DNA of 64,000 bases from a virus: the IMG/VR virus record IMGVR_UViG_3300029786_000322. One strand, 5' to 3'. The notes under the pieces are model-generated. The model searched no databases and was not told the DNA's origin. It worked only from the letters and a program-made list of their open reading frames with translations. Each line of letters starts with the position of its first letter. Position 1 is the stretch's first letter. A program made the position numbers and the translations under genes. Below, one piece after another: positions 1,040-62,872 of this stretch.

Positions 1040-1068
1040 TTGACAATTTTCCAGATGGCGCAATATGT
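1040..1068 (+). promoter_or_regulatory. conserved promoter-like element copy 1 (TTGACA-N11-GGCGCAATATGT)
   Basis: One of 12 copies sharing the -35-like TTGACR, an 11-nt AT-rich spacer and an invariant GGCGCAATAT. Lies upstream of leader RNA copy 1 and the helicase gene. Confidence 0.65.
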
Positions 1069-1073
1069 GTATT

Positions 1074-1219
1074 GTAAAGGTCATAAACCGGGCTGCCAGG
1101 GTTACCGGCTGGCAGAAATCCTTTCGATATTTGTTTACGCTTCCGGGGAAACCCGGAAAGGAGCAGGAGGACAGCAGCACATGCTGCTTCCGGGTCCGAT
1201 TCCCGGATGCTTCTTTTAC
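1074..1219 (+). ncRNA. structured leader RNA, copy 1
   Basis: Three hairpins shared with copies at 12637 and 17663. CUGCCAG..CUGGCAG. CCGGGGAAACCCGG, which carries a GNRA loop. CCGGGUCCGAUUCCCGG, which has a tRNA T-loop-like UUCGAUU loop followed by a U-tract. A closing stem AAAGGAGC/GCUUCUUU has G-U covariation between copies. Confidence 0.55.
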
Positions 1220-1280
1220 AAGACCGCACGAAGCGGCGCAAAAACCACATAAACATGACAAAATACAGGGAGATTAAAAA

Positions 1281-3653: not shown

Positions 3654-3680
3654 TTGACGTTTGTTTAAATGGCGCAATAT
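3654..3680 (+). promoter_or_regulatory. conserved promoter-like element copy 2
   Basis: TTGACG-N11-GGCGCAATAT, directly upstream of the conserved 55-nt element and mini-array A. Confidence 0.6.
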
Positions 3681-3702
3681 TCATAACGAAGGAAGTAAAC
3701 AG

Positions 3703-3757
3703 TTAAAAATAATCCCACGGGGATAGAGGTTAGTGAATAGCTTTAAGCCACTGTTAT
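3703..3757 (+). ncRNA. conserved 55-nt structured element (leader of mini-array A). A near-identical copy follows the tnpB stop codon at 59021-59073
   Basis: TTAAAAATAATCCCACGGGGATAGAGGTTAGTGAATAGCTTTAAGCCACT versus TTAAAAGTAATCCCACTGGGATAGGGCTTTGTGAATAGCCTTAAGCCACT. Two hairpins, the second with compensatory changes (GGTT/AGCT versus GGCT/AGCC). Confidence 0.5.
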
Positions 3758-3758
3758 A

Positions 3759-3992
3759 GTTGCACCACGCAAGGGTGCAGGGGTGAAATATTATACTGAA
3801 TCGTCGCTGCCTGCATAGATATAGTTGCATCCCTTATGGGATGTATGGGTTGAAATTCAATAGAAACAGATGCATTCGGAGGTGTTACAAGTTGCACCCC
3901 CGCAAGGGGTGCATGGGTTGAAAATAAGAAATGGTAGGAAGGAATTCAGATATGAACATTAGTTGCATCCCGCAAGGGTGCAGGGGTGAAGT
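3759..3992 (+). CRISPR. mini CRISPR array A: 4 type I-C-like repeats, 3 spacers of 33-35 nt
   Basis: Repeats at 3759-3789, 3824-3856, 3891-3925 and 3962-3992. They keep GTTGC...(G/T)GGTTGAAAT ends, but each has a different palindromic stem. Spacer 2 recurs in array D. Confidence 0.7.
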
Positions 3993-4815: not shown

Positions 4816-5034
4816 ATGTCAAAGAAAGCATCAGAAACACCGGAGGTGCCATCATATATCCCTCCGGCAAGTGAAAAGGAAAAGATTATAGAAAAGATCC
4901 GAAAAAAAGGAATTGAATGCAAACCGGATGGTACCGGGATTCCAATATTCTACACAAATGACCCGAAAGTAATGGATATGATCCGAAAAGAGATCAATGA
5001 ACGATTTTCGTTCGGGTTTCATATTCGTCCATAG
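4816..5034 (+). CDS. hypothetical small protein, 72 aa
   Basis: AAGGAG RBS 7 nt upstream of the ATG. In frame with track ORF 4714-5034. Confidence 0.5.
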   Translation: MSKKASETPEVPSYIPPASEKEKIIEKIRKKGIECKPDGTGIPIFYTNDPKVMDMIRKEINERFSFGFHIRP

Positions 5035-5073
5035 GGAAAATAATAGAAAATAAGATTATAGGAGAAATAGTAC

Positions 5074-5406
5074 ATGTCAAAGAAAAAAATATCAAAAAAG
5101 AAAAATGTATTAAAGGTGTTATGGAATGAGTGTATAACATTCAAGGTGTTAATTTTTATCATAGCATATGTAGTGCTTGCGTTTATTAATATGCCATTTG
5201 AAAAATGGCTCTCACTTTATTTCGAATGGGAAAAATTAAAGGATTATCAAGAAGTATTCATGGAGGAGATAACATTATTAGTAATTCTCCCTCTCATGGA
5301 GATAGCTGCTGTTGCATTAATTTGTTTTATTATCTATGAGTTTTTTTGCTCTGTCAGTAAGATGATTGCATCTGATGAAGTAATTTCGATTGAAAAGGAA
5401 GAATGA
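5074..5406 (+). CDS. truncated paralog of the array-linked membrane protein (N-terminal TM part only)
   Basis: MSKKKISKKKNVLKVLWNEC matches the N-terminus of 25498-26145. RBS ATAGGAGAAATAGTACATG. Confidence 0.55.
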   Translation: MSKKKISKKKNVLKVLWNECITFKVLIFIIAYVVLAFINMPFEKWLSLYFEWEKLKDYQEVFMEEITLLVILPLMEIAAVALICFIIYEFFCSVSKMIASDEVISIEKEE

Positions 5407-5474
5407 TACGAAAAGAACACCGCTATTAGGTCAGAAATAAATAGCAGAGGTTTGCAGATATAAGGAGGATCGGA

Positions 5475-5645
5475 ATGTGTACTTTAAAGGATAAGTTAGT
5501 GGAATGTGGAGCATGTGTAGCAGCTGTAATTCTTGTGTTGGCAGTTTGTTATGGACTAAGTTGGATTGTAACATGTGGAGTTATTAAGCTGATTACGATG
5601 TGTTTTGGATTAACATTTAAGTGGTCCATTGCAACCGGTAAATGA
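5475..5645 (+). CDS. small Cys-rich membrane peptide, 56 aa
   Basis: Strong RBS TAAGGAGGATCGGAATG. Hydrophobic core AAVILVLAVCYGLSWIV. Confidence 0.4.
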   Translation: MCTLKDKLVECGACVAAVILVLAVCYGLSWIVTCGVIKLITMCFGLTFKWSIATGK

Positions 5646-5901
5646 GCTATGACAATATTAAATTTTATCATTGAGTGTTGGAAGAATTCTTGCGACGAAA
5701 AAATCAAAAGGAATTATGTTGAATCCCTTGCTAAAGTGGCGGTTTCAGTGGCCATCATTATTATATCTGTTTTATTATATTTGCACATATGAAATGTATA
5801 ACGGAAATGTATATTTTGGGGGAGGAGGGGTAAGTACAAACATAATTTTTAAAAAAGTAGCGCAAAGAAAGAATTCACTAATGCAGAAGGGGCGTAACAA
5901 T

Positions 5902-7725
5902 ATGATCAACGGAGAATTAGTTGTAGATAATTTTGCGGGCGGAGGAGGAGCTTCCACAGGAATTGAACTTGCTACCGGATACAGCGTAGACATAGCTATT
6001 AACCATGATCCGGAGGCCATTAAGATGCATAAAGTAAATCATCCCAATACAAAACACTATTGTGAAAACGTATGGGAGGTTGATCCAGTAAAAGCCTGCA
6101 AGGGGCACCCTGTCGGTCTTGCATGGTTTTCTCCGGACTGTAAGCATTTTTCCAAGGCCAAGGGGGGAAAACCGGTAGAAAAGAATATTCGCGGTCTTGC
6201 GTGGGTTGTGCTTAAATGGGCGGCACTTGTCAGACCAAGAGTTATCATGCTTGAAAATGTGGAAGAATTTCAGACATGGGGACCATGTATTCCTATCAGG
6301 GATAAAGATACAGGACGCGTTATTGTCAGCATGGTAGGAAGGCATGACAGAGAGAAGAACGAGCCGCGTACGAGGGTTGCAGATCCAGGAGAAGTTGTTC
6401 CTGTGGATCGCCAGATATTCCAACCAGATCCTAAAAGGAGCGGCCAGACATACAAAAAATGGAGAAAGCAGCTAGAAGCACTTGGATATGAGATAGATAC
6501 AAAGGAACTTGTAGCAGCTGATTATGGCGCACCTACTATGAGAAAGAGATTCTTTATGATTGCACGGTGTGATGGCAAGCCGATTGTCTGGCCGGAACCA
6601 ACACATGGACCGGCAGATAGTGAAGAGGTAAAGGCAGGACTGTTAAAACCATACGTTGGAGCGTATACGCAATTGGATTTTTCTCTTCCTTGCCCGAGCA
6701 TATTTGATACGGCAGAGGAAATCAAAAGGAAATATGGAATACGCGCTGTACGTCCATTGGCGCAGAAAACAATGGATCGAATCGCAAGAGGATTGAAAAA
6801 GTTCGTATTAGACAATCCGGAGCCGTTTATTATCCAATGCAATCATGGTGGAGAGCGTAGACAAAACGACATCAAAGAGCCTTTACCTACTATTACTGGA
6901 AAACACGGATATGGAATTGTGGAACCTAAGATTGTTCCATATATGGGAACCAATACAACAAATCATCCAGGTGGAAATTGTAAAAATCCTATACATACAA
7001 TTACAACAGGAAATCAACAGTGCCTTATCAGCCCAACGCTGATTCAGTATCATTCCGAAACATCGAAGGATGAAGTCAGAGGCCAATCGATTGAAGATCC
7101 GATAATGACCGTGGATGGTTCGAACCGATACGGATTGGTCACGTCGTTTCTACATAAATATTATGACGGAGGATACACTGGAGCTGGTGATACTGTCGAA
7201 AATCCGTTACCGACAGTAACATCCTGGGATCATAACAGTCTGTGTGCAGTTAATCTGATCCAAATGAATAATCATTGCGATGGAAGGGACGTGAAGGAGC
7301 CAATTCCAACAATCACAGCAGGCGATGGTCATTTCGGAGAGGTTAGAGCATTTCTGATCAAGTATTATGGTCAGGGAACTGGACAGGATGTTAAGGAACC
7401 TTTGGATACGGTTACATCAAGAGATCGATTTGGTTTAGTTACAATTAATGGTACCGACTATAAGATCGTGGATATCGGATTGAGGATGCTTGAACCGAAA
7501 GAACTGTATGGATGCCAGGGATTTCCAGATGATTACATCATAGACCGCGATTACACAGGGAAAAAATACCCAAGAAGCGAGCAGGTACGCAGGTGTGGAA
7601 ATGCTGTATGTCCTCCGATTCCGGCTGCTCTTGTAAAAGCAAATCTTCCGGAATTATGCGTAGCGAAACGCACTGGGAATATGAAAATTCGTGAGGAACA
7701 GACCGGGCAGCTTAGATTTGCATAA
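5902..7725 (+). CDS. DNA (cytosine-5)-methyltransferase, probably multispecific (five tandem target-recognition-like repeats)
   Basis: Motif I FAGGGGAS, PC motif SPDCKHFS, ENV motif MLENVEEF, motif VIII-like QTW. Five repeated blocks KEPLPTITG / EDPIMTVDG / ENPLPTVTS / KEPIPTITAG / KEPLDTVTS. The start is placed at MINGEL, which has an AAGGGG RBS. The track ORF extends to 5671, but the N-terminal extension looks non-coding. Confidence 0.8.
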   Translation: MINGELVVDNFAGGGGASTGIELATGYSVDIAINHDPEAIKMHKVNHPNTKHYCENVWEVDPVKACKGHPVGLAWFSPDCKHFSKAKGGKPVEKNIRGLAWVVLKWAALVRPRVIMLENVEEFQTWGPCIPIRDKDTGRVIVSMVGRHDREKNEPRTRVADPGEVVPVDRQIFQPDPKRSGQTYKKWRKQLEALGYEIDTKELVAADYGAPTMRKRFFMIARCDGKPIVWPEPTHGPADSEEVKAGLLKPYVGAYTQLDFSLPCPSIFDTAEEIKRKYGIRAVRPLAQKTMDRIARGLKKFVLDNPEPFIIQCNHGGERRQNDIKEPLPTITGKHGYGIVEPKIVPYMGTNTTNHPGGNCKNPIHTITTGNQQCLISPTLIQYHSETSKDEVRGQSIEDPIMTVDGSNRYGLVTSFLHKYYDGGYTGAGDTVENPLPTVTSWDHNSLCAVNLIQMNNHCDGRDVKEPIPTITAGDGHFGEVRAFLIKYYGQGTGQDVKEPLDTVTSRDRFGLVTINGTDYKIVDIGLRMLEPKELYGCQGFPDDYIIDRDYTGKKYPRSEQVRRCGNAVCPPIPAALVKANLPELCVAKRTGNMKIREEQTGQLRFA

Positions 7726-7865
7726 ATTGCATAAATTGCTATACTGTAAAAAGAAAATGTAAATATTGCTATCATTTGTATTTTTATAGACGTTCATATG
7801 CGCAATACATAATTCTTTTTGAAAAAGTAATGAGATGGTAACAAAGAAAAAAGGAGAGTGAAAGA

Positions 7866-12602: not shown

Positions 12603-12629
12603 TTGACGATTTTTCAAAAGGCGCAATAT
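12603..12629 (+). promoter_or_regulatory. conserved promoter-like element copy 4
   Basis: TTGACG-N11-GGCGCAATATGTATAGTG. Confidence 0.65.
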
Positions 12630-12636
12630 GTATAGT

Positions 12637-12780
12637 GTAAAGGTCATAAACCGAGCTGCCAGGGTTACCGGCTGGCAGAAAATCCTTTCGAAAAATGTTT
12701 ACGTTCCGGGAAATCCCCGGAAAGGATAGTGGGTACGCAGCGCAAGTTATTCCGGGTTCGACTCCCGGATATCCTTTTTC
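12637..12780 (+). ncRNA. structured leader RNA, copy 2
   Basis: Same three-hairpin architecture and T-loop-like terminal hairpin plus U-tract as copy 1. Closing stem AAAGGAUA/UAUCCUUU. Confidence 0.55.
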
Positions 12781-12812
12781 AAAATTGCAGGAAAAATGTG
12801 GAGGAAAAGAGA

Positions 12813-16783: not shown

Positions 16784-17116
16784 TTGAAATGTTTGACATG
16801 CAAGAAACACTGGTCGCAGGGAGGCCGCTGTTCAGAGAACGTGAGAAACTGCCTGCATTATGAGGAAGAACCAAGAGGAAAAATGGTCCGCACAGAACTG
16901 TCTTTTCGTATGGATGCAGAGGCGGAAACTCCGGTGGTCAGATTTGGAGAGAAAATACTGGTTTCCGATGGTTCAAAAGCGGTCGAGATGACTGTGGTCA
17001 AGATCAACTGGGTTAATCTTCGGGATATGCTCTGCAATGTATCCGCGGATTATCATGAGAATGAGATGCCGCGATTTGAGAAAGAAAAGAAGTTCAAAGC
17101 ATTACATGGAAAATAG
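16784..17116 (+). CDS. hypothetical protein, 110 aa (TTG start)
   Basis: AAAGGAGGAGG RBS 9 nt upstream of the TTG. The stop codon abuts the first repeat of mini-array B. Confidence 0.5.
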   Translation: MKCLTCKKHWSQGGRCSENVRNCLHYEEEPRGKMVRTELSFRMDAEAETPVVRFGEKILVSDGSKAVEMTVVKINWVNLRDMLCNVSADYHENEMPRFEKEKKFKALHGK

Positions 17117-17222
17117 TTGCATTCCAGTGGAATGCATGGGGTGAAAGAAATAGGCAAATCGCATGACAATTTCTGAAATTAAATTGTTGCGCTCCCGTGG
17201 AGGGGGGCGTATGGATTGAAAT
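17116..17222 (+). CRISPR. mini CRISPR array B: 2 repeats, 1 spacer
   Basis: Repeats GTTGCATTCCAGTGGAATGCATGGGGTGAAA and GTTGCGCTCCCGTGGAGGGGGGCGTATGGATTGAAAT. Begins at the last base of the upstream stop codon. Confidence 0.55.
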
Positions 17223-17628: not shown

Positions 17629-17655
17629 TTGACGATTTTTTAAATGGCGCAATAT
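17629..17655 (+). promoter_or_regulatory. conserved promoter-like element copy 6
   Basis: TTGACG-N11-GGCGCAATATGTATCATG. Confidence 0.65.
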
Positions 17656-17662
17656 GTATCAT

Positions 17663-17805
17663 GTAAAGGTCATAAACCGAGCTGCCAGGGTTATCGGCTG
17701 GCAGAAATCTTTTCGATATTTGTTTACACTCCGGGGAAACCCGGAAGGGGTAGTGAGGACGCAGCGTGTGCTGTTTCCGGGTTCGATTCCCGGGTATCCC
17801 TTTTG
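17663..17805 (+). ncRNA. structured leader RNA, copy 3
   Basis: Same architecture as copies 1 and 2. CCGGGUUCGAUUCCCGG T-loop-like hairpin plus U-tract. Closing stem AAGGGGUA/UAUCCCUUUU. Confidence 0.55.
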
Positions 17806-18020
17806 ACTGCCACATACGGTCTTCTCAAAATTCAGCCGTCTGCGGCCTGTGGAACTTTCCACTGGACCAAAATAACGATAACCGCCAGAATAACAGCAGC
17901 GTGCGTTGGCGTGAGAACTATCGGCGCACAGGGATTACTCCTTTCATATTTATCTATCAAACCTTTCCGTACATCGTATGGAAAGGTTATGGGACAGCAG
18001 GTGCATAGACATGAACTATT

Positions 18021-18808: not shown

Positions 18809-18810
18809 AA

Positions 18811-18915
18811 GCTGCATCATGTGCGGGGGTGTATGGATTGAAATGTCGGAGTATGGTGTAAGAATCATATATATTCCTACGTTGTGCTCCTCCCGGTTGG
18901 TGCACGGGTTGAAAT
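18811..18915 (+). CRISPR. mini CRISPR array C: 2 repeats, 1 spacer
   Basis: GCTGCATCATGTGCGGGGGTGTATGGATTGAAAT, a 35-nt spacer, then GTTGTGCTCCTCCCGGTTGGTGCACGGGTTGAAAT. Starts 2 nt after the upstream stop codon. Confidence 0.55.
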
Positions 18916-19613
18916 ATAGTTCTAAAAATGGTTGGAAGACCTGTTTTTTGGTTACACCCATTGTCAGCTGTAAACCACAGTTAAGGCTTTCGGATGCGGT
19001 TAAAGTTTAAAAAGGCAACACCGCCAGATGGCTGTTCCTTTCGCGCCCTGAGATCAAGAAATCATTATGGGGCGGGCACTTACCAAATGAACTTGAAAGA
19101 AAGATCTACGTGGAATCCATGATCCACAGGACAAAGGATAATCCCATTGTCCTTTATGACTTTGATGACAGGTTTTACCAGTGCATGTACATGCTCCACT
19201 ATGCGTGAAGATGGCACAGTCGCTGAAAGACGGTTCTTAAAACTCCCGGCAGAATACGACTCTCTGCAACATAAGATCGATCATATCAAACGTGCACGGC
19301 ACCATGGTTCCAGACGTGTTTCAAACCTCTGGGCATATGCAGACGACGTCAATAAAGACATTGTTGTAAAAACAGCCCAGTTTGTTACGGATACTGCCGT
19401 GCTGCATGTTAACAGCATGCAGTTGCGGTGTTATCACTGTGTCCTCAGTCAGCGAGTCCATACGGGAAAACAGGTATGGAAGCACGCGAATTTAGTCATG
19501 TGAGACTTCACGGCCGGCCGCCGAAAGGACGTACACTACAAAAGCCTTTTGCACCTGACTTTTCTGTGGTATACTGAAAATATAAAAGATATTTCAAGGA
19601 GAAGGCAGAGAAA

Positions 19614-20486: not shown

Positions 20487-20506
20487 GTAAGAAGATATAC
20501 TTTACT

Positions 20507-20724
20507 GTTGCGCCCCATTGGGTGCATGGGTTGAAATCTTTATGACCTTCTGAAAAGTGAGGGCATCTTAGTTGCACCCCCGCAAGGGATGTATGGGTTG
20601 AAATTCAATAGAAACAGATGCATTCGAAGGCGTTACAAGTTGCACCCCGCGAGGGGTGTATGGGTTGAAATTGCAGAAAGCTCAGGATTGGAAGGTTGCA
20701 TCCTATGGGATGCATGGATTGAAA
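20507..20724 (+). CRISPR. mini CRISPR array D: 4 repeats, 3 spacers
   Basis: Repeats at 20507-20537, 20571-20604, 20639-20671 and 20695-20724 with divergent stems. Spacer 2 (20605-20637) is near-identical to spacer 2 of array A. Starts 20 nt after the upstream stop. Confidence 0.7.
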
Positions 20725-20764
20725 CGAACATATTTGTTATTATTTATTATTGAGATCAGAAAGG

Positions 20765-20855: not shown

Positions 20856-20863
20856 ACATATTG

Positions 20864-21085
20864 AAGGGATAAACAGGGGCTTACCGTTTGTTTCTTCAAT
20901 AAGAGTTTTTCTCTTATATGCCTCCTTAAGTTTCCTGCGCTGCATTTACAGCATTTTGGCAGCGCAGGGGGAATCCACAGGACTGCATTTGACGTTGTGT
21001 GGCGGCCTGCTCATCCGGTTCAACCCCGGAGGATTCCCTTACCGCTTATTTTTGCGGAGACAAAAATTTTAAAAAATATTCAAAA
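20864..21085 (+). ncRNA. candidate small structured RNA between promoter copies 7 and 8
   Basis: No ORF with an RBS. Several strong hairpins, including CCTGCGCTGC...GCAGCGCAGG, GGGAATCC...GGATTCCC and CCGC-ttattttt-GCGG. Confidence 0.35.
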
Positions 21086-21117: not shown

Positions 21118-21170
21118 GTGTATTGAAGGAATAAACAGGGGCTTGCCGCTGTTGATTACCAGAGTTAAAA

Positions 21171-21200
21171 GTTGTGCCCCTATGGGGTGCATGGGTAATA
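21171..21200 (+). CRISPR. solitary degenerate CRISPR repeat in the cas5 5' UTR
   Basis: GTTGTGCCCCTATGGGGTGCATGGGTAATA has the repeat 5' end and hairpin but a degenerate 3' handle. Confidence 0.35.
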
Positions 21201-21210
21201 AGAGAAAGGA

Positions 21211-21885
21211 ATGGAAAAAGAAAAAATGGGAGTGAAACTAAAAGTCTGGGGAGATTACGCATTGTTCACCAGACCAGAACTGAAAACTGAACGGTATACA
21301 TACGATGTGATGACACCGTCGGCGGCTAGAGGAATTCTGGAATCTATCTACTGGCATCCGGGACTTCGGTGGTATGTAGACAAGATTCATGTATTAAATC
21401 CGATTGCCACTACGAGCGTGAGAAGAAATGAACTTCTCAGTAAGATACCAAAGTCAAATATGCTGCAGGCATACAACGGCGGGGATGTGAAACTGTATAA
21501 CTCGTCAAGAGACGATATTATCCAGAGGGCATCTGTTATTCTCCGGGATGTCTGCTATGTGATTGAGGCGCATTTTGAAATGACAGGGAAAGCGAGCCCA
21601 ACAGACAGCCCGGCAAAGTTTATAAGTATCTTTAACAACAGGGCAAGAAAAGGGGCATGTTATTCGATGCCGTATTTTGGTGTAAGGGAATTCCCGGCAC
21701 ACTTTGAACTCTGCGAAGGAGATGAAAAGATCCCATCCTACTATGAAGGACTTCCGGATAAAGATCTCGGGCTGATGCTTTATGATCTGGATTACTCCTG
21801 CGGTAGAGATATCCAGCCAATGTATTATCATGCGATTATGAAAAACGGCGTTATTGACGTTGGGAACAGTGAGGTGCTTCGATGA
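21211..21885 (+). CDS. cas5: Cas5 (type I-C Cas5d, crRNA-processing subunit)
   Basis: N-terminal LKVWGDYALFTRPE...SAARGILESIYWHPG is the Cas5d signature. The stop overlaps the cas8c start (ATGA). Confidence 0.9.
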   Translation: MEKEKMGVKLKVWGDYALFTRPELKTERYTYDVMTPSAARGILESIYWHPGLRWYVDKIHVLNPIATTSVRRNELLSKIPKSNMLQAYNGGDVKLYNSSRDDIIQRASVILRDVCYVIEAHFEMTGKASPTDSPAKFISIFNNRARKGACYSMPYFGVREFPAHFELCEGDEKIPSYYEGLPDKDLGLMLYDLDYSCGRDIQPMYYHAIMKNGVIDVGNSEVLR

Positions 21886-23621
21886 TCCTTCAGTCACTTG
21901 TGAAATTATATGAAACACTTGCGGATCAGGGAAAAGTGTCCCGTCCTGGCTGGTGTAATGCAAAGGTATCCTATGCGGTGGTTTTAAACCATGATGGGAC
22001 GATTAAAGATATTGTTTCCGTGAAACAGAAAGTGAAGAGAGGAAAGAAGACTGTTGAAATTCCAATAATTATGCAGGTTCCAGAGATGGTCACCCGCGCT
22101 AACAACATTGCCTCCAGCTTTCTCTGCGAAAATGCAAAGTATCTCTTTGGGATTGACGAAAAGATGAGTTTGCGTACACTGGAATGTTTTAAGGCGGCAA
22201 AGAAAAAACATCTTGATATTCTTGATGTTGTGGATTCACCTGTAGCACAGACGGTATGTAACTTTTTCCGTTCATGGGATCCGGAACAGGCGTTGGATCA
22301 ACCGGCTGTTGCAAAACTTGCAGAAGAGTTTTATAAAGGCGGAAACCTCGTTTTTGAAGTAGATGGGGAATATGTGCATGATAATGAAGAAGTCCGCAGG
22401 GCATGGATGGATTACAGCAGTGTACCATATGAAATGGTAACTGGAAGATGCCTTATTACTGGAGAGGAAGCGGAGATTGCCCGCACGCACGGGAAAATCA
22501 AAGGAGTTCCGGGAGCACAGTCATCTGGCGCGTCGCTTGTATCATTTAACGGAGCATCCCTTGAGTCTTATGAAAAAACACAGAGCTACAACGCGCCGAT
22601 TAGCACCTATGCGGCGTATGCATATGTGACCGCGCTGAATTACTTGCTTTCTACGGACGGGTATCACAGCAAGGTAGGAGATTCCATGGTGGTTTTCTGG
22701 ACAGATTCCGGGGATGTGGATGATGTGAGCAGACTGCGGAAGATGATGGGAAGCATCAATGAAAAGGATCACACCCCTACAGATACGGATGAAAAACTGT
22801 ACGTCCTCTGCCTTGCACCAAATGCCGGGCGAATTGCAGTCCGGTTCTTCTATGAGGATGCGATCGGGGTAATCTGGGAAAACCTGTCCGAACATGCCAG
22901 TCGGATGAAGATTGTAAAACCAGTATTTGAGGATCAAGAATTTATCAATATCTGGCAGATGCTCATGGAGACAGTCAACCAGAATCTTACAGATAAAACA
23001 CCTGTCCCGCATATGTCAGCAATGACGTTACAGTCAGTCATTTCGGATACACCGTATCCGCAGAGTCTGTATGCAGGTGTGTTATCTCGTATCCGCGCGG
23101 AGCACAAAGGTGTTACTTACAGAAAAGCATCGATTATTAAAGCTTTTTTAATAAAGAACTACAAATGGGAGGAAGGAAAAAATATGGAAGCATTAAATGA
23201 AGGCTGTAAGGATCGGGCATATATCCTTGGAAGACTGTTTGCGGTTATGGAAAAGGCACAGAAAGAAGCAGTTGGCAATATCAACCAGACAATTTGTGAT
23301 AAGTTTTACAATTCCGCGTGCACAACACCAAGATCGATCTTTCCAGTACTGATCAGGCTATCTAACAGTCATTTAAGTAAGTTGAAACGGACAAAACCGG
23401 GGAGAGGATATTATTTTACAGCTAAAATGCAGGATTTAATGGATAAAATTCCGGTAACAGATGATGATCCGGGATTCCCGCGGCGTTTCTCATATGAGGA
23501 TCAGGGTAAGTTTGCACTTGGTTATTATCATCAGATGCGGGCGGAATATACAAGCAGTAAGTTAAAAGATAATGATTCAGAAGGTGATCAGACAAATGCA
23601 GAGAATATGGAGGAAAACTAA
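21882..23621 (+). CDS. cas8c: Cas8c (Csd1), type I-C large subunit
   Basis: 579 aa. Its position between cas5 and cas7 and its size fit Csd1. N-terminal MILQSLVKLYETL. Confidence 0.85.
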   Translation: MILQSLVKLYETLADQGKVSRPGWCNAKVSYAVVLNHDGTIKDIVSVKQKVKRGKKTVEIPIIMQVPEMVTRANNIASSFLCENAKYLFGIDEKMSLRTLECFKAAKKKHLDILDVVDSPVAQTVCNFFRSWDPEQALDQPAVAKLAEEFYKGGNLVFEVDGEYVHDNEEVRRAWMDYSSVPYEMVTGRCLITGEEAEIARTHGKIKGVPGAQSSGASLVSFNGASLESYEKTQSYNAPISTYAAYAYVTALNYLLSTDGYHSKVGDSMVVFWTDSGDVDDVSRLRKMMGSINEKDHTPTDTDEKLYVLCLAPNAGRIAVRFFYEDAIGVIWENLSEHASRMKIVKPVFEDQEFINIWQMLMETVNQNLTDKTPVPHMSAMTLQSVISDTPYPQSLYAGVLSRIRAEHKGVTYRKASIIKAFLIKNYKWEEGKNMEALNEGCKDRAYILGRLFAVMEKAQKEAVGNINQTICDKFYNSACTTPRSIFPVLIRLSNSHLSKLKRTKPGRGYYFTAKMQDLMDKIPVTDDDPGFPRRFSYEDQGKFALGYYHQMRAEYTSSKLKDNDSEGDQTNAENMEEN

Positions 23622-23622
23622 G

Positions 23623-24534
23623 ATGAGCACACCAATTAAGAACAGATATGATTTCGTAGTATTATTCGACGTAGAGAATGGAAATCCGAACGGTGATCCG
23701 GATGCCGGAAATATGCCGAGAGTTGATCCAGAGACTGGCATCGGGCTTGTGACAGATGCCTGCATAAAGCGCAAGATCCGTAATTATGTGGAAACTGTAA
23801 AAGAAGATGCAGCCGGGTTCAAGATCTATATTAAAGAGGGGGTCCCGCTGAACCGGAGTGACCTTAAGGCAGTCGAAAGTCTTGGTATTGACGTCGGTGA
23901 CGACAAAAATGCACTTGAAGATGTAAAGAAGCTGAAAAAGACAGATGAAGATGTGGATCTTAAGCTCCGTGACTATATGTGTAGTAATTTCTATGATATC
24001 CGTACATTTGGTGCTGTCTTGACTACCTTTACAAAGGCGGCATTAAACTGTGGGCAGGTACGTGGCCCGGTACAGATTGGTTTTGCAAAAAGTATTGATC
24101 CTGTTTTCAGCCAGGATATTACTGTAACCAGAGTTGCAATCACAACGGAAAAGGATGCGGAAAAGAAAAATACAGAAATGGGAAGAAAGAGTATTATTCC
24201 TTATGGACTTTACCGTGTGGAGGGATATATTTCTGCTAATCTTGCCCGTAAGACCACCGGCTTTTCTGAAGACGATCTGGAACTGCTTTGGGAAGCAATC
24301 ATTAACATGTTTGAGAATGACCATTCCGCAGCACGCGGGAAGATGGCAGTGCGTGAGCTCATCGTATTCAAGCATAACAGCGAGCTTGGCAATTGTCCAT
24401 CGTACAAACTGTTTGAAACTGTTGATGTTAAGAAGAATGATGGTGTTGAGTTTCCTCGTAAATATTCCGATTATGCAGTGACTATTCATGAGGATGCGAT
24501 TCCGGATGGCGTGACAATGACTCGCAAAATCTAA
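23623..24534 (+). CDS. cas7: Cas7 (Csd2), type I-C backbone subunit
   Basis: Start at MSTPIKNRYDF with a GGAGGA RBS. DVENGNPNGDPDAGNMPR is the Csd2 signature. Confidence 0.9.
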   Translation: MSTPIKNRYDFVVLFDVENGNPNGDPDAGNMPRVDPETGIGLVTDACIKRKIRNYVETVKEDAAGFKIYIKEGVPLNRSDLKAVESLGIDVGDDKNALEDVKKLKKTDEDVDLKLRDYMCSNFYDIRTFGAVLTTFTKAALNCGQVRGPVQIGFAKSIDPVFSQDITVTRVAITTEKDAEKKNTEMGRKSIIPYGLYRVEGYISANLARKTTGFSEDDLELLWEAIINMFENDHSAARGKMAVRELIVFKHNSELGNCPSYKLFETVDVKKNDGVEFPRKYSDYAVTIHEDAIPDGVTMTRKI

Positions 24535-24784
24535 AAAGATTTCCAGAGATTACAAGGCAACCCGCGTTTTGCGGGCTGCATCTGCTTGGGTTATGCCGAA
24601 ATGTAGAATTCCGGTGCGAACTGAAAGCTTACATAGCTTCTCTGGGAGACTCGCACCGGAAATGGAGGTATTAGTGTACAAAAAGAACACAAAACCCAAC
24701 TGTATAAGGCCGTTTGAGAACAATTAATTAGAGGAATTGTTTATATTTTGGCGATCGGGAGAGTTGTTTCTGTTCACTTTTACA

Positions 24785-25482
24785 GCTACGCCCCATGGAG
24801 GGGCGTATGGATTGAAAATGATTGTTATTGTTTTTTATTCATGGAGAGGAAAGCTACGCCCCATGGAGGGGCGTATGGATTGAAAAGTAAGGTTTCGTCT
24901 CGAAGCCTTTATTCTGTTTTGCTACGCCCCATGGAGGGGCGTATGGATTGAAATACCAAAATCTTTTGACATTCTTATAAATGGTAACAGCTACGTCTTA
25001 TGGGGTACGTATGGATTGAAATCATAATAATTGTAGAGATCTCAATACAAAATAAAGCTGCGTCTCATGGAATACGTATGGATTGAAATGAAAAGGCGAG
25101 TTTGCGAAAGCAGATATTGGAATGTTGCGTCTCGTGGAGTACGTATGGATTGAAATTCCAACTTTAACTACATAACTATCCTGATAAACTTGCTGCACCC
25201 CATGGAGAGTGTATGGATTGAAATTTAAAAAATCATGGATAACATCTGCGATAAGACGTTGCACCTCGCTAGGGGTGTATGGGTTGAAATTTCCATAATC
25301 GGTAGCCAATTATTATCATTAGGTGTTGCACCCCATAGAGGGTGTATGGATTGAAATTATATAAAAATGATGAATATGTAAAAAAAATAAAAGAGTTACG
25401 CTCCATGGAGTGCGTATGGCTTGAAACCTCTTATTTTTTTAAAGATATCACAATTACGCCCAAAGTGGGCTTACGTAAATTT
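24785..25482 (+). CRISPR. main CRISPR array: 10 repeats of 33 nt plus a degenerate terminal repeat, spacers of 33-37 nt
   Basis: Repeats at 24785, 24853, 24921, 24990, 25057, 25124, 25192, 25258, 25325 and 25395. A degenerate eleventh sits at 25454-25482. The first three are identical (GCTACGCCCCATGGAGGGGCGTATGGATTGAAA). Later ones keep the GYTRC 5' end and TATGGATTGAAAT 3' handle but have different, internally complementary stems. Confidence 0.85.
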
Positions 25483-45761: not shown

Positions 45762-45941
45762 AGTAAGGTCAGAAAATTAAAATAGATTAATGCGGCGGTA
45801 AAGATTGCAGCAATCATTGTAATTTTTTTGTTTCTCTGATTGTTTTTGGAATCGGATTTGCAGATTTGTCATTTTACACAAAAATCGGGGGAAGACAGCA
45901 TTGGTACAATCTATCTCTATTTGTCCATCATCGTGACAAAT

Positions 45942-46040
45942 GTTGCACTCCCGCGGAGGGGGTGCATGGATTGAAATCGACTTTCGAAACGGTAATTGGA
46001 TTTTACTACGCTGCGTCCCCGCGAGGGGCGCATGGATAAA
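45942..46040 (+). CRISPR. mini CRISPR array G: 2 repeats, 1 spacer
   Basis: GTTGCACTCCCGCGGAGGGGGTGCATGGATTGAAAT, a 32-nt spacer, then GCTGCGTCCCCGCGAGGGGCGCATGGATAAA. Confidence 0.5.
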
Positions 46041-46064
46041 GAAACAGGGAAAGGGAGGGAACGT

Positions 46065-57285: not shown

Positions 57286-57411
57286 TCAATGGCATTATCA
57301 GAGATTATTTATTTTTCTGATTATTGATATACTTCTCAACTGCATCTGCTGTACGGTCACTTACAGTTTTATTCTCTGTAAAAATAAAATTTAAAAAGTT
57401 TCCAAAATCCT

Positions 57412-57438
57412 TTGACAAAATCACAAAAGGCGCAATAT
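57412..57438 (+). promoter_or_regulatory. conserved promoter-like element copy 12 (drives tnpB)
   Basis: TTGACA-N11-GGCGCAATATGTATACCG. Confidence 0.65.
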
Positions 57439-57485
57439 GTATACCGTAAAGGTAAAAATACCACAATGGAAAGGAGACAACTGAT

Positions 57486-59015
57486 ATGGGTTACATGCGT
57501 ACTGCAACTGTATATATCAATGAGGGACACCCTCTGTTCAAATATGCAGACAACTTAACAGCACTGACCAACAACCTCAGTAACGCGGCACGTTTCCGTC
57601 AGCGGCAGGTGCTCTCAGCTGTCTCCAAAGAGGAAGCTGACTGGACAGCCAACGAGCGCGAGGTTATGGAGGAAATCCGTAAAACAGTCCCTCTGAGGGA
57701 AAAGGCATCCATGCCGACCAAAGGAAAACATTTCCTCGGATATATGTTTCTTGAGGGGATCTTGCGGGTGAACCATAACCCGGATTTTTACGCTGAAGGA
57801 CTGCCTCGCCAGACAGCACAGCATGTCTTAAAGACTGCAGTGAAAGACATGAAGAGTTTTTATAAAGCCATTAAGGAATACAATAAAAACCCTGACCGTT
57901 TCACCGGACAGCCAGAACTTCCAGGCTACAAACGCAAGGGAGGCCATTCCACTGCGCTGATCACCAACCAGGACTGCACAATCAAAACCTGTGACGGCAA
58001 GTGGTATGCGTACTTTCCTCACGCAAAGGATAAACCCGTGTGCCTTGGATATCCGATACCGAATGCAAGACTTAAACAGGCATGCATCACTCCGAACAAC
58101 GGACGGTATAAGTTGTCCTTTCAGTTTGAAGTAGATGCAGATATCCCGGAAATCCCAGAGGATATCCGTCCAGAGCGTATCTGTGCCATTGACTTTGGTG
58201 TGGACAACCTTATGTCGGTCACAAACAACTGCGGTCTGCCATCCCTGATTTATAAAGGCGGTGTGGCAAAGTCCGTCAACCAGAAATACAACAAAACGAT
58301 AGCTGCACTCGTGAGCGAGCAGACCCTCCGTACCGGGGAAAAGTTTGTCCCAGATGCAGCGTATCACGCTGCAACAAACAGAAGAAACGACCAGATCTCT
58401 GATTTCATGCGAAAGTGCGCAAAACACTTCGTGGCATGGTGCATAGAAAACCGTATCGACACCGTTGTCATGGGTATAAACAAGTACTGGAAGCAGGAAG
58501 CAGGCCTCGGCAAAAGAAACAACCAGAACTTTGTGCAGCTCCCGTTTGACAGGCTGCGTAACATCATCCGCTATCTCTGCGTATGGGAAGGCATCTTCTG
58601 TCTGGATCAGGAGGAAAGCTATACTTCAAAAGCAAGCTTTCCGGACAGGGACTTTATCCCTGTATACGGTAATGAGAAAGGAAAACCCTCCTTCTCCAGA
58701 CAGCGGAGACCTGTACATTACAAGGGAATGTACAAAAAGGATGGCTTCCGCGGGCTTTATACAACAAAATCCGGCGATATCATCAACTCCGACCTGAATG
58801 GATCTGCAAATATCCTGCGGAAAGCATTCCCAAACGCTTTCACAGAAAAACCTGCGCCTGATTTTAACAGTGTGGTAATTATCCGCCATCCGGATGAAGA
58901 AAAAGTCAAAAATAACCGGAAGAAACAGACGGCAGTGCAAAAACAGGACAGCCATGCAAAAATCAAACGGCAGCGCAAAAAGGATGCAAAGCGTAAAAAA
59001 CATCCGGCTGCGTAA
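57486..59015 (+). CDS. tnpB: TnpB-like RNA-guided-nuclease-family protein (RuvC-I/II/III present, zinc finger degenerate). No tnpA present
   Basis: RuvC-I ICAIDFGVDNLMSVT, RuvC-II region VAWCIENRIDTVVMGINKYWKQ, EESYTSK, RuvC-III INSDLNGSANILRK. AAAGGAGACAACTGATATG RBS. Confidence 0.85.
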   Translation: MGYMRTATVYINEGHPLFKYADNLTALTNNLSNAARFRQRQVLSAVSKEEADWTANEREVMEEIRKTVPLREKASMPTKGKHFLGYMFLEGILRVNHNPDFYAEGLPRQTAQHVLKTAVKDMKSFYKAIKEYNKNPDRFTGQPELPGYKRKGGHSTALITNQDCTIKTCDGKWYAYFPHAKDKPVCLGYPIPNARLKQACITPNNGRYKLSFQFEVDADIPEIPEDIRPERICAIDFGVDNLMSVTNNCGLPSLIYKGGVAKSVNQKYNKTIAALVSEQTLRTGEKFVPDAAYHAATNRRNDQISDFMRKCAKHFVAWCIENRIDTVVMGINKYWKQEAGLGKRNNQNFVQLPFDRLRNIIRYLCVWEGIFCLDQEESYTSKASFPDRDFIPVYGNEKGKPSFSRQRRPVHYKGMYKKDGFRGLYTTKSGDIINSDLNGSANILRKAFPNAFTEKPAPDFNSVVIIRHPDEEKVKNNRKKQTAVQKQDSHAKIKRQRKKDAKRKKHPAA

Positions 59016-59020
59016 ATACA

Positions 59021-59073
59021 TTAAAAGTAATCCCACTGGGATAGGGCTTTGTGAATAGCCTTAAGCCACTTAT
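59021..59073 (+). ncRNA. conserved 55-nt structured element immediately 3' of tnpB (candidate omega-RNA terminal scaffold). Near-identical copy at 3703-3757
   Basis: See 3703-3757. Confidence 0.5.
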
Positions 59074-59092
59074 GTTACTCTAACTCCCGAAA

Positions 59093-59133
59093 CCACGCCT
59101 GATGGCGGAGCGGAGCGAAGGTTTCAGGCGTGG
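59093..59133 (+). terminator. long hairpin 3' of the tnpB locus (terminator-like, weak U-tract)
   Basis: CCACGCCTGA, a 20-nt loop, then TCAGGCGTGG, followed by TAATTCATTTT. Confidence 0.4.
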
Positions 59134-59581
59134 TAATTCATTTTAAATCTGTAATGGATCCATCCGTTTCATTCCATAATATCAGTTACAATCAGATGTT
59201 ATTAGCTCTTTATCCGGATATTATAAAGAAGGCATTCGCTGAATATGAGAAGAGATTGTTTGAACAGACTTTGCAGAATGAAATGGAAAAGAAAGCTGCT
59301 GAATGGGATGGGGTTATAGATGCCGTTCAAGATTCTTCCAGCAGACGAGAAAGGTTAGAAAAACGACTCATATATTTAAAGGATTATTTACAAAAGTACG
59401 ATGGTGTGAGTGAACAGATTTATAATAGTTTTAGCAAAGAAATTACAGAAATAGAAGAAGAACTGGGGAAGCTTGGAGGTTGATACATATCCGCAACTTT
59501 TTAGGGTGTTTCGTTATTTCTTAGCTGATAAGATATTTTGGAGACATAAGATTTACGTTTGATAAAAAGGAGAGAAGTGAT

Positions 59582-61186: not shown

Positions 61187-61762
61187 TTGGAATATATCTG
61201 CCGTTGGGCGGGGCTTGTGAAACCGAGAGTGATCATGTTGGAAAACGTAGAAGAATTTAAAACATGGGGACCATTGAACCGGCGGCATCATCCAATTAAG
61301 GCAAAACAGGATAAGACATTTGAGCGGTTTGTGCAACAACTTCGGGAGCTTGGCTATGAAGTGGAGCTCCGTGAGCTGATTGCTGCCGATTATGGTGCGC
61401 CGACTATGCGCAAACGATTCTTTATGATCGCGCGGTGTGACGGCAAGCCGATTGTATGACCAGAGCCAACACACGGACCGGCAGACAAGTGAATAGGTAA
61501 AAGCCGGACTGTTAAAACCATACGTTGGAACATACACACAGATTGATTTCAGCCGGCCGTGTCCTTCGATTTTTGATACATCAGAGGAGATCAAAGAAAA
61601 GTACGGCATCCGGGCAGTACGTCCGTTGGCTCCGAAAACAATGGATCGGATCGCAAGAGGTTTGAAAAAGTTTGTACTCGACAATCCGGAACCATTTATC
61701 ATTCGGTGTAACCACGGCGGCGAGCGCAGACCGAACGATATCCGGGAACCAATACAACAAAT
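61187..61762 (+). pseudogene. decayed second copy of the C5 methyltransferase (frameshifts and stops), 5' and middle part
   Basis: RVIMLENVEEFKTWGP...ADYGAPTMRKRFFMIARCDGKPIV parallels 6240-6600. Downstream, homology continues in other frames (KAGLLKPYVG, IRCNHGGER). Confidence 0.6.
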
Positions 61763-61798
61763 CAAATGTTAAATGCCTCACAAAAAAGGAGAAAAAAT

Positions 61799-62218
61799 AT
61801 GTTAGAAATGATCGAAAAAGTTATTAGAGATGGAGGAAATCTGCATATTGAACCTGCATTATACGGAGGAGATATCTTTGTCTGCATTGATTTCCCGTGT
61901 TATTTTGGTTTAAACAATGCAACTGAGTTGTCAGACGCTACTATTGTTTACGAAGGAACAGAACTAAAAGACACCATTGTCGACATCTGCTCACCTGGAG
62001 ATATACGTGCGATAGCAGTTGAAGATTTTTTAACGGATTATGCAGTCAAAGATCCGGCTTTGTTGGTTGCAAGAGCAGAAAATTTACAGACGGCATTAAA
62101 CCATCTCGAAGAGCGTCTGGCAGAATGGTACCATCTGACAGACGCTCAACAGAAAACAATACTGCTCTCTTTTGCAGCAGAACGGAAAAAATACCTCGAA
62201 AATGTAGTACAATATTGA
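61799..62218 (+). CDS. hypothetical protein, 139 aa, inserted within the decayed methyltransferase copy
   Basis: AAAAGGAGAAAAAATATG RBS. Confidence 0.5.
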   Translation: MLEMIEKVIRDGGNLHIEPALYGGDIFVCIDFPCYFGLNNATELSDATIVYEGTELKDTIVDICSPGDIRAIAVEDFLTDYAVKDPALLVARAENLQTALNHLEERLAEWYHLTDAQQKTILLSFAAERKKYLENVVQY

Positions 62219-62469
62219 AAACTATCATGACTTAAAGGGAAATACCCTATACCCACCCACCATCACAAGAAAGGATTTTTTATGAGACAAAATAGATTGA
62301 CAAAACAGAAGATTCTTTTGTTTACCTTGATGTTTGCAATGGCCGTAGAATATATTCCGCAGCCCTCTTCTGCAACAAACTCCACGACCATCGTGACATC
62401 TGAGGCTAAAGAAAAATTTTCATTATCGGATGTCCCGAAGTACAAAGACCAGGCGGTTGCCAGGGCTTT

Positions 62470-62669
62470 CCAGATGATTACATCATAGACCACGATTACA
62501 CAGGAAAAAATACCCAAGAAGCGAGCAGGTACGCAGGTGTGGAAATGCTGTATGTCCTCCGATTCCGGCTGCTCTTGTAAAAGCAAATCTTCCGGAATTA
62601 TGCGTAGCGAAACGCACTGGGAATATGAAAATTCGTGAGGAACAGACCGGGCAGCTTAGGTTTGCTTAA
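62470..62669 (+). pseudogene. 3' terminal fragment of the decayed methyltransferase copy
   Basis: About 95% identical to 7515-7725, including the stop codon. Confidence 0.6.
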
Positions 62670-62780
62670 ATTTTGGAAAATGATGGTAGGAAATTTAAAG
62701 AGCATGATTAAAAATGAATAGAAGAAAAGCCAAAAAGTGAAAGAATAACACCTATCTTTTATGTAGTAAGTATATTTACA

Positions 62781-62872
62781 GTTGCATCCCTTATGGGATG
62801 TATGGGTTGAAATGCAATCAGGCTGCGGATGCTACCGGCTTGTTGCGCTTTATGAGGCGCATGGATGGAAAT
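62781..62872 (+). CRISPR. mini CRISPR array H: 2 repeats, 1 spacer
   Basis: The first repeat, GTTGCATCCCTTATGGGATGTATGGGTTGAAAT, is identical to repeat 2 of array A. The second is GTTGCGCTTTATGAGGCGCATGGATGGAAAT. Confidence 0.55.

Follow-up and report, generated by a model that had tools for sequence, protein, structure and literature searches.

The 64,000-nucleotide (nt) stretch of viral DNA in IMG/VR record IMGVR_UViG_3300029786_000322 (hereafter the window) raises the question of why one short element stands both in the leader of a CRISPR array, mini-array A, and in the 3′ flank of a solitary tnpB gene. The initial annotation offered two answers: a processing or loading signal shared by the two loci, or recombination in which an omega-RNA locus and a CRISPR array took part. 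The second answer fits the data as a past event. The leader copy of the element (positions 3703–3752) is probably an inert relic of recombination between the right end of an insertion sequence (IS) and a promoter/array cassette, and would have no required role in the array. The window itself is an AT-rich, phage-like genome segment that carries a cluster of 13 tRNA genes and one further tRNA gene.

Two copies of one element

The leader copy (TTAAAAATAATCCCACGGGGATAGAGGTTAGTGAATAGCTTTAAGCCACT) and the copy next to tnpB (59021–59070; TTAAAAGTAATCCCACTGGGATAGGGCTTTGTGAATAGCCTTAAGCCACT) are identical at 44 of 50 positions (88%), without gaps and on the same strand. The earlier observation that the two loci have an element in common is thereby upheld over 50 nt. 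A degenerate 41-nt pattern occurs at exactly these two sites in the window and at none in 100 shuffles. A covariance model (R1), which was built from ten tnpB-side copies and from which the array-A copy was left out, detects the array-A copy with 35.7 bits (E~5e-10); the scores of the 14 closest transposon copies are ~46–66 bits, and those of more distant copies are 17–32 bits. No third copy of the element is found in the window by R1 with filters off.

3703–3752, plus strand: array-A leader copy, with hairpin 1 (3712–3724), hairpin 2 (3725–3744) and then AAGCCACT; a fragment of an IS605-family right end/omega-RNA.
59021–59070, plus strand: resident tnpB-side copy, with hairpin 1, hairpin 2 and AAGCCACT; 65.5 bits with R1, covariation over 22 loci.

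The leader copy sits between a promoter copy and mini-array A, 55 kilobases (kb) from the nearest tnpB. It has diverged at positions that the family conserves: it has A in place of the G of GTAAT, a base that is invariant in the family, and one conserved C–G pair of hairpin 2 is disrupted by a C-to-G change. Its distance to every close family member is about equal (45–49 of 58), as expected of an old, drifting fragment, and no single candidate for the donor transposon lineage emerges from these close members.

3654–3681, plus strand: promoter copy of array A, TTGACG-16 nt-AATATT within the TTGAC-N17-GGCGCAATAT block; matches the consensus in the promoter scan.
3682–3702, plus strand: promoter-proximal segment ending ..GAAGGAAGTAAACAG, a leader type also seen behind promoter copies 20802 and 21064 (cas operon).
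3759–3991, plus strand: mini-array A, with four type I-C-like repeats and three spacers of 34, 34 and 37 nt.
3759–3789, 3824–3856, 3891–3924 and 3962–3991, plus strand: array-A repeats, read from the sequence; their families are shared with other arrays.

The promoter block TTGAC-N17-GGCGCAATAT is strongly conserved in 12 copies in the window, one of which lies upstream of tnpB. A conserved promoter copy preceding array A, as described in the initial annotation, is thus real as a sequence feature, and the copy at 3654–3681 is a putative promoter by its sequence. It lies ~100 nt upstream of the array.

A structural module at the 3′ end of tnpB homologs

The element is a genuine structural module of RNA (or single-stranded DNA) that is found family-wide in a transposon clade with TnpB proteins of ~500 amino acids (aa). 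On its own, the 55-mer has an ordinary thermodynamic fold (z about −1), and the leader together with repeat 1 reaches a z of about −2. Since the single-sequence fold is not significant, the structural evidence was taken from comparison. The comparison of homologs defines hairpin 1 as AUCCC-loop-GGGAU and hairpin 2 as GGGCU-loop yGUGAAy-AGCC. More distant loci carry compensatory stems in both hairpins (GUUC/GAAU, AUUUCC/GGAAAU and UGCGG/CCGCA in hairpin 1; GUGCU/AGCAC, GAGGGCG/CGUCCUU and GAAGCCU/AGGCUU in hairpin 2).

In the alignment of 22 hits, 92.5% of cells pair, compared with 83% in shuffles and 22–54% with slid partners, and six of the 11 pairs vary on both sides. Compensatory cells number 20 against 4.6 expected, a value that none of 500 shuffles reaches. 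The alignment was fitted to the model, which somewhat favours the structure in these figures; the slid controls and the raw sequences agree with them in direction. In the model search that had been proposed earlier, tnpB homologs with as little as ~31–45% protein identity still carry the element at their 3′ ends. The element had been called structured, and this description holds through covariation in homologous tnpB loci and not through the folding of the 55-mer alone. The same conserved structure rules out a generic terminator or spacer, which had been named as the outcome that would overturn the proposed link.

The transposon right end and a captured tnpB

The tnpB product matches Pfam OrfB_IS605 (35.8 bits; cut-off 30.5), with a weak TNB domain, and NCBIfam guided_TnpB (112.3 bits; cut-off 100). 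The RuvC columns D236/E377/D436 are invariant in an alignment of 20 sequences (TnpB and 19 homologs), and the protein database contains thousands of ~500-aa TnpB relatives. The 90% homolog (locus L002; L numbers denote fetched loci) and the 68% homolog (L003–L006) are classical IS605 units with an adjoining divergent Y1 tnpA, and copies of the 57% homolog (L105–L107) likewise lie in IS605 units with Y1 tnpA.

57412–57439, plus strand: phage promoter copy fused upstream of tnpB; a member of repeat families D1/D2.
57486–59015, plus strand: tnpB, 509 aa, solitary, with the stop codon at 59013–59015; the window has neither tnpA nor a left end.
59071–59141, plus strand: rest of the right end, with a variable linker, a hairpin at 59093–59133 (CCACGCCTGA..TCAGGCGTGG) and the terminal TAATTCAT.
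59142–59161, plus strand: predicted omega-RNA guide TTTAAATCTGTAATGGATCC, placed by the right-end boundary and the published organisation of right-end element RNA (reRNA)/omega-RNA.

The element follows the stop codon in TnpB homologs at 90%, 68%, 64%, 61% and 57% identity; it is identical in the 90% homolog and nearly so in the homologs at 57–68% protein identity. Beyond the element, the homologs contain a variable linker of ~20 nt, a hairpin (CCACGCCTGA...TCAGRCGTGG) and then TAATTCAT, and the left end of the relatives bears a hairpin that matches the one at the right end. The right-end hairpin occurs once in the window (59093–59133) and is also predicted in the consensus fold. Together with TAATTCAT, it is invariant in six closely related aligned transposon copies. 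Searching metagenomes with 19 nt of the element yielded 45 loci. In metagenome loci, at least four unrelated flanks adjoin the right end immediately past TAATTCAT, which fixes the transposon boundary at 59141. From this boundary and the published reRNA/omega-RNA organisation (PMC13565253; PMC8612924), the guide is predicted to start at 59142. The element was thus correctly placed directly past tnpB by the initial annotation, as it starts 6 nt after the stop codon, but it is not the scaffold/guide junction, as it lies ~70 nt upstream of the guide. The connection that was drawn there between the repeat and the RNA biology of TnpB was correct. Apart from the same phage site, neither the window nor the fetched loci contain a further match to the predicted guide, and four left-end flanks display no clear transposon-adjacent motif (TAM).

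Neither a left-end sequence nor tnpA is found in the window; both the left end and Y1 tnpA are present in relatives L002, L003 and L105–L107. Homology to the transposon of L002 begins only at 57468, the ribosome-binding site, and from 57467 in the upstream direction the phage promoter replaces tnpA and the left end. All three contexts that were recovered via the downstream open reading frame (ORF) contain tnpB, and the search for an empty site by this route consequently found none in three of three contexts. Five metagenomic contigs share the right-end/flank junction of tnpB. Given its presence in all three contexts and the common junction, tnpB looks fixed and domesticated rather than mobile. 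The locus at 57486–59141 is best described as an IS200/IS605-family tnpB unit, probably captured by the phage, with a putative omega-RNA that TnpB may bind and use to guide cleavage next to a TAM.

Truncation of the element in sister strains

The gene upstream of array A encodes a DEAD/ResIII helicase. The arrangement of the window is exactly repeated in nine metagenomic contigs and also in the 205-kb contig behind L007. Array A has the same sequence in the nine window-type contigs, and repeat 1 deviates in those of the sister strains; wherever a contig is long enough to reach them, the three spacers show no difference. Four variant loci (L112, L130, L151 and L152) agree with the window in the helicase 3′ end, in the promoter position and in the spacers of their array A, and in them the element is cut to its 3′ 30 nt (GTTAGTGAATAGCTTTAAGCCACTGTTATA), with hairpin 1 and the 5′ arm of hairpin 2 missing. 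The sequence of the variant strains diverges directly past GGCGCAATAT, and the lost part is replaced by a cassette that consists of promoter, ~170-nt noncoding RNA (ncRNA) and a small zinc-ribbon-like ORF, and the retained promoter position would drive a different cassette there. A relative with a 73%-identical helicase has a promoter and an ncRNA of the same family at this locus and contains neither array A nor the element.

Because half an element cannot regrow to a full one, the full fragment is older than the truncation. Strains still keep array A without the full element, which is the strongest single argument against a need for it as a leader.

A phage-borne type I-C system

The repeats of array A are ~31–34 nt long and consist of a GC-rich hairpin followed by ..ATGG(A/G)TTGAAAT, the pattern of type I-C. 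The first and last repeats are degenerate (AGGGGTGAAAT and AGGGGTGAAG). With cas5c, cas8c and cas7c also encoded by the phage, the type I-C system of which array A forms part is phage-borne, and its repeats would be cut by Cas5c, the enzyme known for this task in type I-C.

21211–21885, plus strand: cas5c; Pfam Cas_Cas5d 2.5e-38, NCBIfam type I-C Cas5c above cut-off.
21882–23621, plus strand: cas8c; Pfam Cas_Csd1 3e-165, NCBIfam Cas8c/Csd1 above cut-off.
23572–24534, plus strand: cas7c; Pfam Cas_Cas7 1e-107, NCBIfam Cas7/Csd2 above cut-off.
24784–25432, plus strand: main I-C array with 10 repeats, directly downstream of cas7c; its leader is without the element.

None of cas3, cas1, cas2 and cas4 was found among 19 ORFs scanned with Pfam, a set in which several ORFs have no match and smaller ORFs are left out, within a window of 64 kb from a genome of ~205 kb or more. 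The effector module therefore looks deficient in interference and adaptation, at least locally. The window contains at least seven I-C-like arrays or mini-arrays, and the element is absent from the other six (R1, filters off). The element is no conserved CRISPR leader, as it also varies among strains. The arrays belong to the type I-C system of the phage and not to TnpB, with Cas5c/Cas8c/Cas7c as the likely machinery for processing and binding.

The other mini-arrays lie at 17111–17222, 18810–18916, 20500–20725, 45941–46043 and 62772–62870. Across all of these arrays, array A and the main array included, the I-C-like repeats differ from each other, even within one array, through compensatory hairpin changes, and the handle ..TGG(A/G)TTGAAAT is constant. 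Spacer 2 of array A (3857–3890) recurs with two mismatches at 20606–20638 in the array at 20.5 kb, and in contig L146 (228–317) spacer 2 is followed by the next spacer of the 20.5-kb array, indicating that the two arrays are paralogous and recombine with each other. Comparison of the spacers and the guide with all fetched loci returned self-matches only. Spacer 3 of the main array (24956–24989) holds a copy of the upstream block of the promoter (CCAAAATCTTTTGACA..TAAATGG), which could be an internal promoter or a spacer against the promoters of related phages. The cas5c 5′ untranslated region (UTR) contains, just past a promoter copy, a solitary repeat-like hairpin at 21167–21200 (GTTGTGCCCCTATGGGGTGCATGGGTAAT) that has no TTGAAAT handle and resembles described cr-like autoregulatory RNAs.

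Origin of the leader copy

At 59021–59070 the element is native, an internal module of the omega-RNA/reRNA scaffold and right end of an IS200/IS605-family transposon. The phage has probably captured the tnpB unit, with a phage promoter cassette in place of tnpA and the left end, and the leader copy is a detached and diverged right-end fragment. This fragment probably landed between the promoter cassette and the first repeat of array A by illegitimate or cassette-shuffling recombination. It would now be transcribed within the 5′ leader of the precursor CRISPR RNA (pre-crRNA) and discarded when the phage Cas5c cuts the repeats. The leader copy lacks the right-end hairpin, TAATTCAT and the left end, and the sequence upstream of it is not homologous to the tnpB 3′ end.

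The junctions of the fragment are consistent with this origin. The cas5c leader runs from ...GAGTTAAAA into the repeat-like hairpin GTTGTGCCCC, and the array-A leader reads ...CAGTTAAAA, the element (ATAATCCC...CACTGTTATA) and GTTGCACC. In the transposon, the left edge of the element carries TTAAAAGT, and its right edge carries TTATAGTTGC in L096 and relatives like it. The junctions thus share TTAAAA(G)T on the 5′ side and (A)GTTGC on the 3′ side, and these identities of 5–8 nt at both junctions are compatible with a microhomology-mediated insertion between TTAAAA and the first repeat. The 12 copies of the promoter core provide ample substrates for cassette exchange. Indeed, such exchange seems to be a general habit of this genome, as the window and variant sequences diverge exactly at the 3′ edge of the promoter core and tnpB is itself fused to a promoter cassette in the region 57385–57485.

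Several observations weigh against an inert relic. The leader is identical in all nine window-type contigs, so no decay is visible within this type, and both hairpins are still able to form in the leader copy. One of the six differences between the copies belongs to a G–C to A–T double change that keeps a pair of hairpin 2, which could reflect either some structural constraint on the RNA or an origin from an A–T family member. Since the A–T state is also found in transposon relatives L017 and L143, the double change may simply be inherited. The microhomologies at the junctions are short and could be coincidental. Finally, either order of events, an insertion of the ncRNA cassette or its deletion, is compatible with the sequences.

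Alternative roles of the leader copy

The reading that survives best beside an inert relic, although we consider it unlikely, is a co-opted leader module, in which the transposon hairpins were kept since they are useful to the array. They could serve as a structured 5′ cap against 5′-to-3′ decay of the pre-crRNA or as a TnpB-binding decoy or handle, coupling or titrating TnpB. Both leader hairpins are foldable, and one stem difference is the compensatory G–C to A–T change, but a family-invariant base and one stem pair are mutated, and the folding energy is ordinary (z about −1 for the element and −2 for the leader with repeat 1). The fragment has the omega-RNA orientation and lies directly downstream of a conserved phage promoter, and a TnpB with an intact RuvC triad stands under the phage promoter in every recovered contig of the phage. 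The module, however, is in no other array of the window, and the variant strains hold array A without hairpin 1 and half of hairpin 2.

A narrower functional link, in which the half scaffold in the leader would still be recognised by the domesticated TnpB and array-A transcription would recruit TnpB, titrate it or be cleaved by it, is improbable. If it were true, a phage would offer a natural case of an omega-RNA system physically linked to a type I CRISPR array, and this might represent an early stage, still reversible, like those from which TranC and type V systems arose. Only if TnpB bound the leader RNA would the importance of the locus be much higher, as a natural case of crosstalk of a transposon nuclease with a CRISPR array.

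Still less credible is an incipient TnpB-to-CRISPR hybrid of the TranC kind, in which the leader piece and repeat 1 would replace the 3′ part of the omega-RNA and the array-A spacers would guide TnpB, either alone or with a trans-acting 5′ scaffold from the tnpB locus. The layouts are parallel: hairpin 1, hairpin 2, a linker, a GC-rich hairpin, a short tail and the guide at tnpB correspond to hairpin 1, hairpin 2, 6 nt, the repeat hairpin, AGGGGTGAAAT and a spacer at array A. The splitting of an omega-RNA into a tracrRNA (trans-activating CRISPR RNA) and a crRNA is also the TnpB-to-Cas12 route that has been published (Jin et al. 2025, summarised in PMC13565253). However, the repeats are canonical type I-C repeats whose cognate Cas5c/8c/7c are encoded by the phage, the right-end hairpin and the guide-adjacent TAATTCAT are absent from the leader, tnpB (57.5 kb, with no array on its flanks) is 55 kb from array A (3.8 kb), and the module is truncated in sister strains. 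Repeat/anti-repeat pairing of six repeats with 58851–59141 lies within shuffles (z −2.0 to +0.3), and tracr pairing of the TranC kind is thus not indicated by any unusual repeat complementarity.

Chance similarity, or a common intrinsic terminator or filler at both sites, can practically be dismissed: on the minus strand, hairpin 1 and a T-rich run form a weak terminator-like site at both loci, but the stem has only 5 base pairs and both loci are flanked by plus-strand ORFs, and these readings are effectively refuted by the shuffles (0 chance matches for the 41-nt pattern), by the linkage of the element to the 3′ ends of tnpB homologs on the coding strand and by its covariation.

The proposal of a shared processing or loading signal finds no support in the sequences, with six other arrays and the 73% relative lacking the element, sister strains retaining half of it, and repeat/anti-repeat pairing absent. 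A recombination relic would instead provide a clean worked example of how to recognise an omega-RNA module, by a pair of covarying hairpins behind tnpB, in a clade of ~500-aa TnpB proteins from gut Firmicutes that is large and has been little studied. It would also show a large gut phage shuffling promoter-led cassettes (ncRNAs, mini-arrays and a captured tnpB), and it warns that a shared leader sequence should not be taken as a shared function.

Relation to described systems

The tnpB locus resembles the omega-RNA/reRNA systems of IS200/IS605 TnpB proteins, such as that of ISDra2 (Karvelis 2021, PMC8612924; structure, PMC10097598; review, PMC13565253), in its structured noncoding stretch from the tnpB 3′ end to the right end, in the guide predicted past that end, in the intact RuvC triad and in relatives with Y1 tnpA and left- and right-end hairpins. 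It differs in that the TNB region of the ~500-aa TnpB clade lacks the cysteine zinc finger that is usual there, the RNA is predicted from sequence, and the phage unit has lost tnpA and the left end and runs from a phage promoter. The array-A copy, a 50-nt internal piece, cannot alone be an omega-RNA.

According to Jin et al. (Cell 2025, cited in PMC13565253), the tracrRNA and crRNA of type V systems arose by splitting of an omega-RNA, and TranC systems are transposon–CRISPR intermediates. The likeness to TranC consists in an omega-RNA-derived sequence that is joined to a CRISPR array in a genome encoding a matching TnpB. In contrast to TranC, the array is of type I-C with its own Cascade genes, lies 55 kb from tnpB and displays no anti-repeat pairing; its repeats are unrelated to the transposon end, and the junction varies among strains.

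Mini-arrays of viruses use repeats identical to those of the host and host Cas proteins (review PMC11656645). The present phage shares with the phage CRISPR systems lacking adaptation or nuclease genes in that review a short array, a large genome and effector genes, with no cas1, cas2, cas4 or cas3 found among the 19 ORFs of the window that were scanned. It differs from the reviewed mini-arrays by its own Cas5c/8c/7c and mutually different repeats, and a transposon-derived leader piece is not a described feature of such arrays. The repeat-like hairpin that follows TTAAAA in the cas5c 5′ UTR, behind the same type of promoter, resembles the cr-like regulatory RNAs of cas operon leaders (Shmakov et al. 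2023, 10.1101/2023.03.03.530964), a relation of layout only. The array-A leader looks like this cas5c 5′ UTR with a transposon fragment inserted between TTAAAA and the repeat.

Wider genomic context

The context of the element is of more interest than the element itself, as it combines an apparently Cas3-less phage I-C module, mini-arrays with mutually divergent repeats, a captured tnpB and promoter–ncRNA cassettes. The phage lineage was matched only in ENA, Logan and other metagenome assemblies. A blastn search in distant mode with both loci found no match in the GenBank phage collection, and IMG/VR scans with two element patterns and the helicase gave no matches. Rfam, at gathering thresholds and at E<=0.5, recognised tRNAs only, and the element, the arrays and the promoter-proximal ncRNA match no family.

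The neighbourhood of the helicase gene has been struck by TnpB-type elements more than once. A relative with a 71%-identical helicase (L014) contains a different IS605-type unit at 4905–6938, with Y1 tnpA and a 536-aa TNB-domain protein, ~1.1 kb downstream of the helicase gene and past a 250-aa minus-strand ORF.

The promoter-proximal ncRNA family of ~170 nt, which ends in a hairpin resembling the T arm of tRNA (TTCCGGGTTCGAYTCCCGGA) with a T run behind it, is present three times in the window (1040–1225, 12603–12790 and 17629–17815). Outside the window it is found in L130 (4387–4582, minus strand) and L009 (6345–6600), at the locus of array A in variant strains and in the 73% relative. A further stretch of ~200 nt (20860–21060), GC-rich, noncoding and apparently structured, lies upstream of the cas operon, enclosed by the adjacent promoter copies 20802 and 21064.

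The window also contains a duplication, 6505–7728 versus 61373–62672, with 76–99% identity in blocks. The first copy lies inside a C-5 cytosine DNA methylase ORF (5671–7725), and in the region of the second copy, contigs of the same phage have a small ORF with a DNA_methylase domain.

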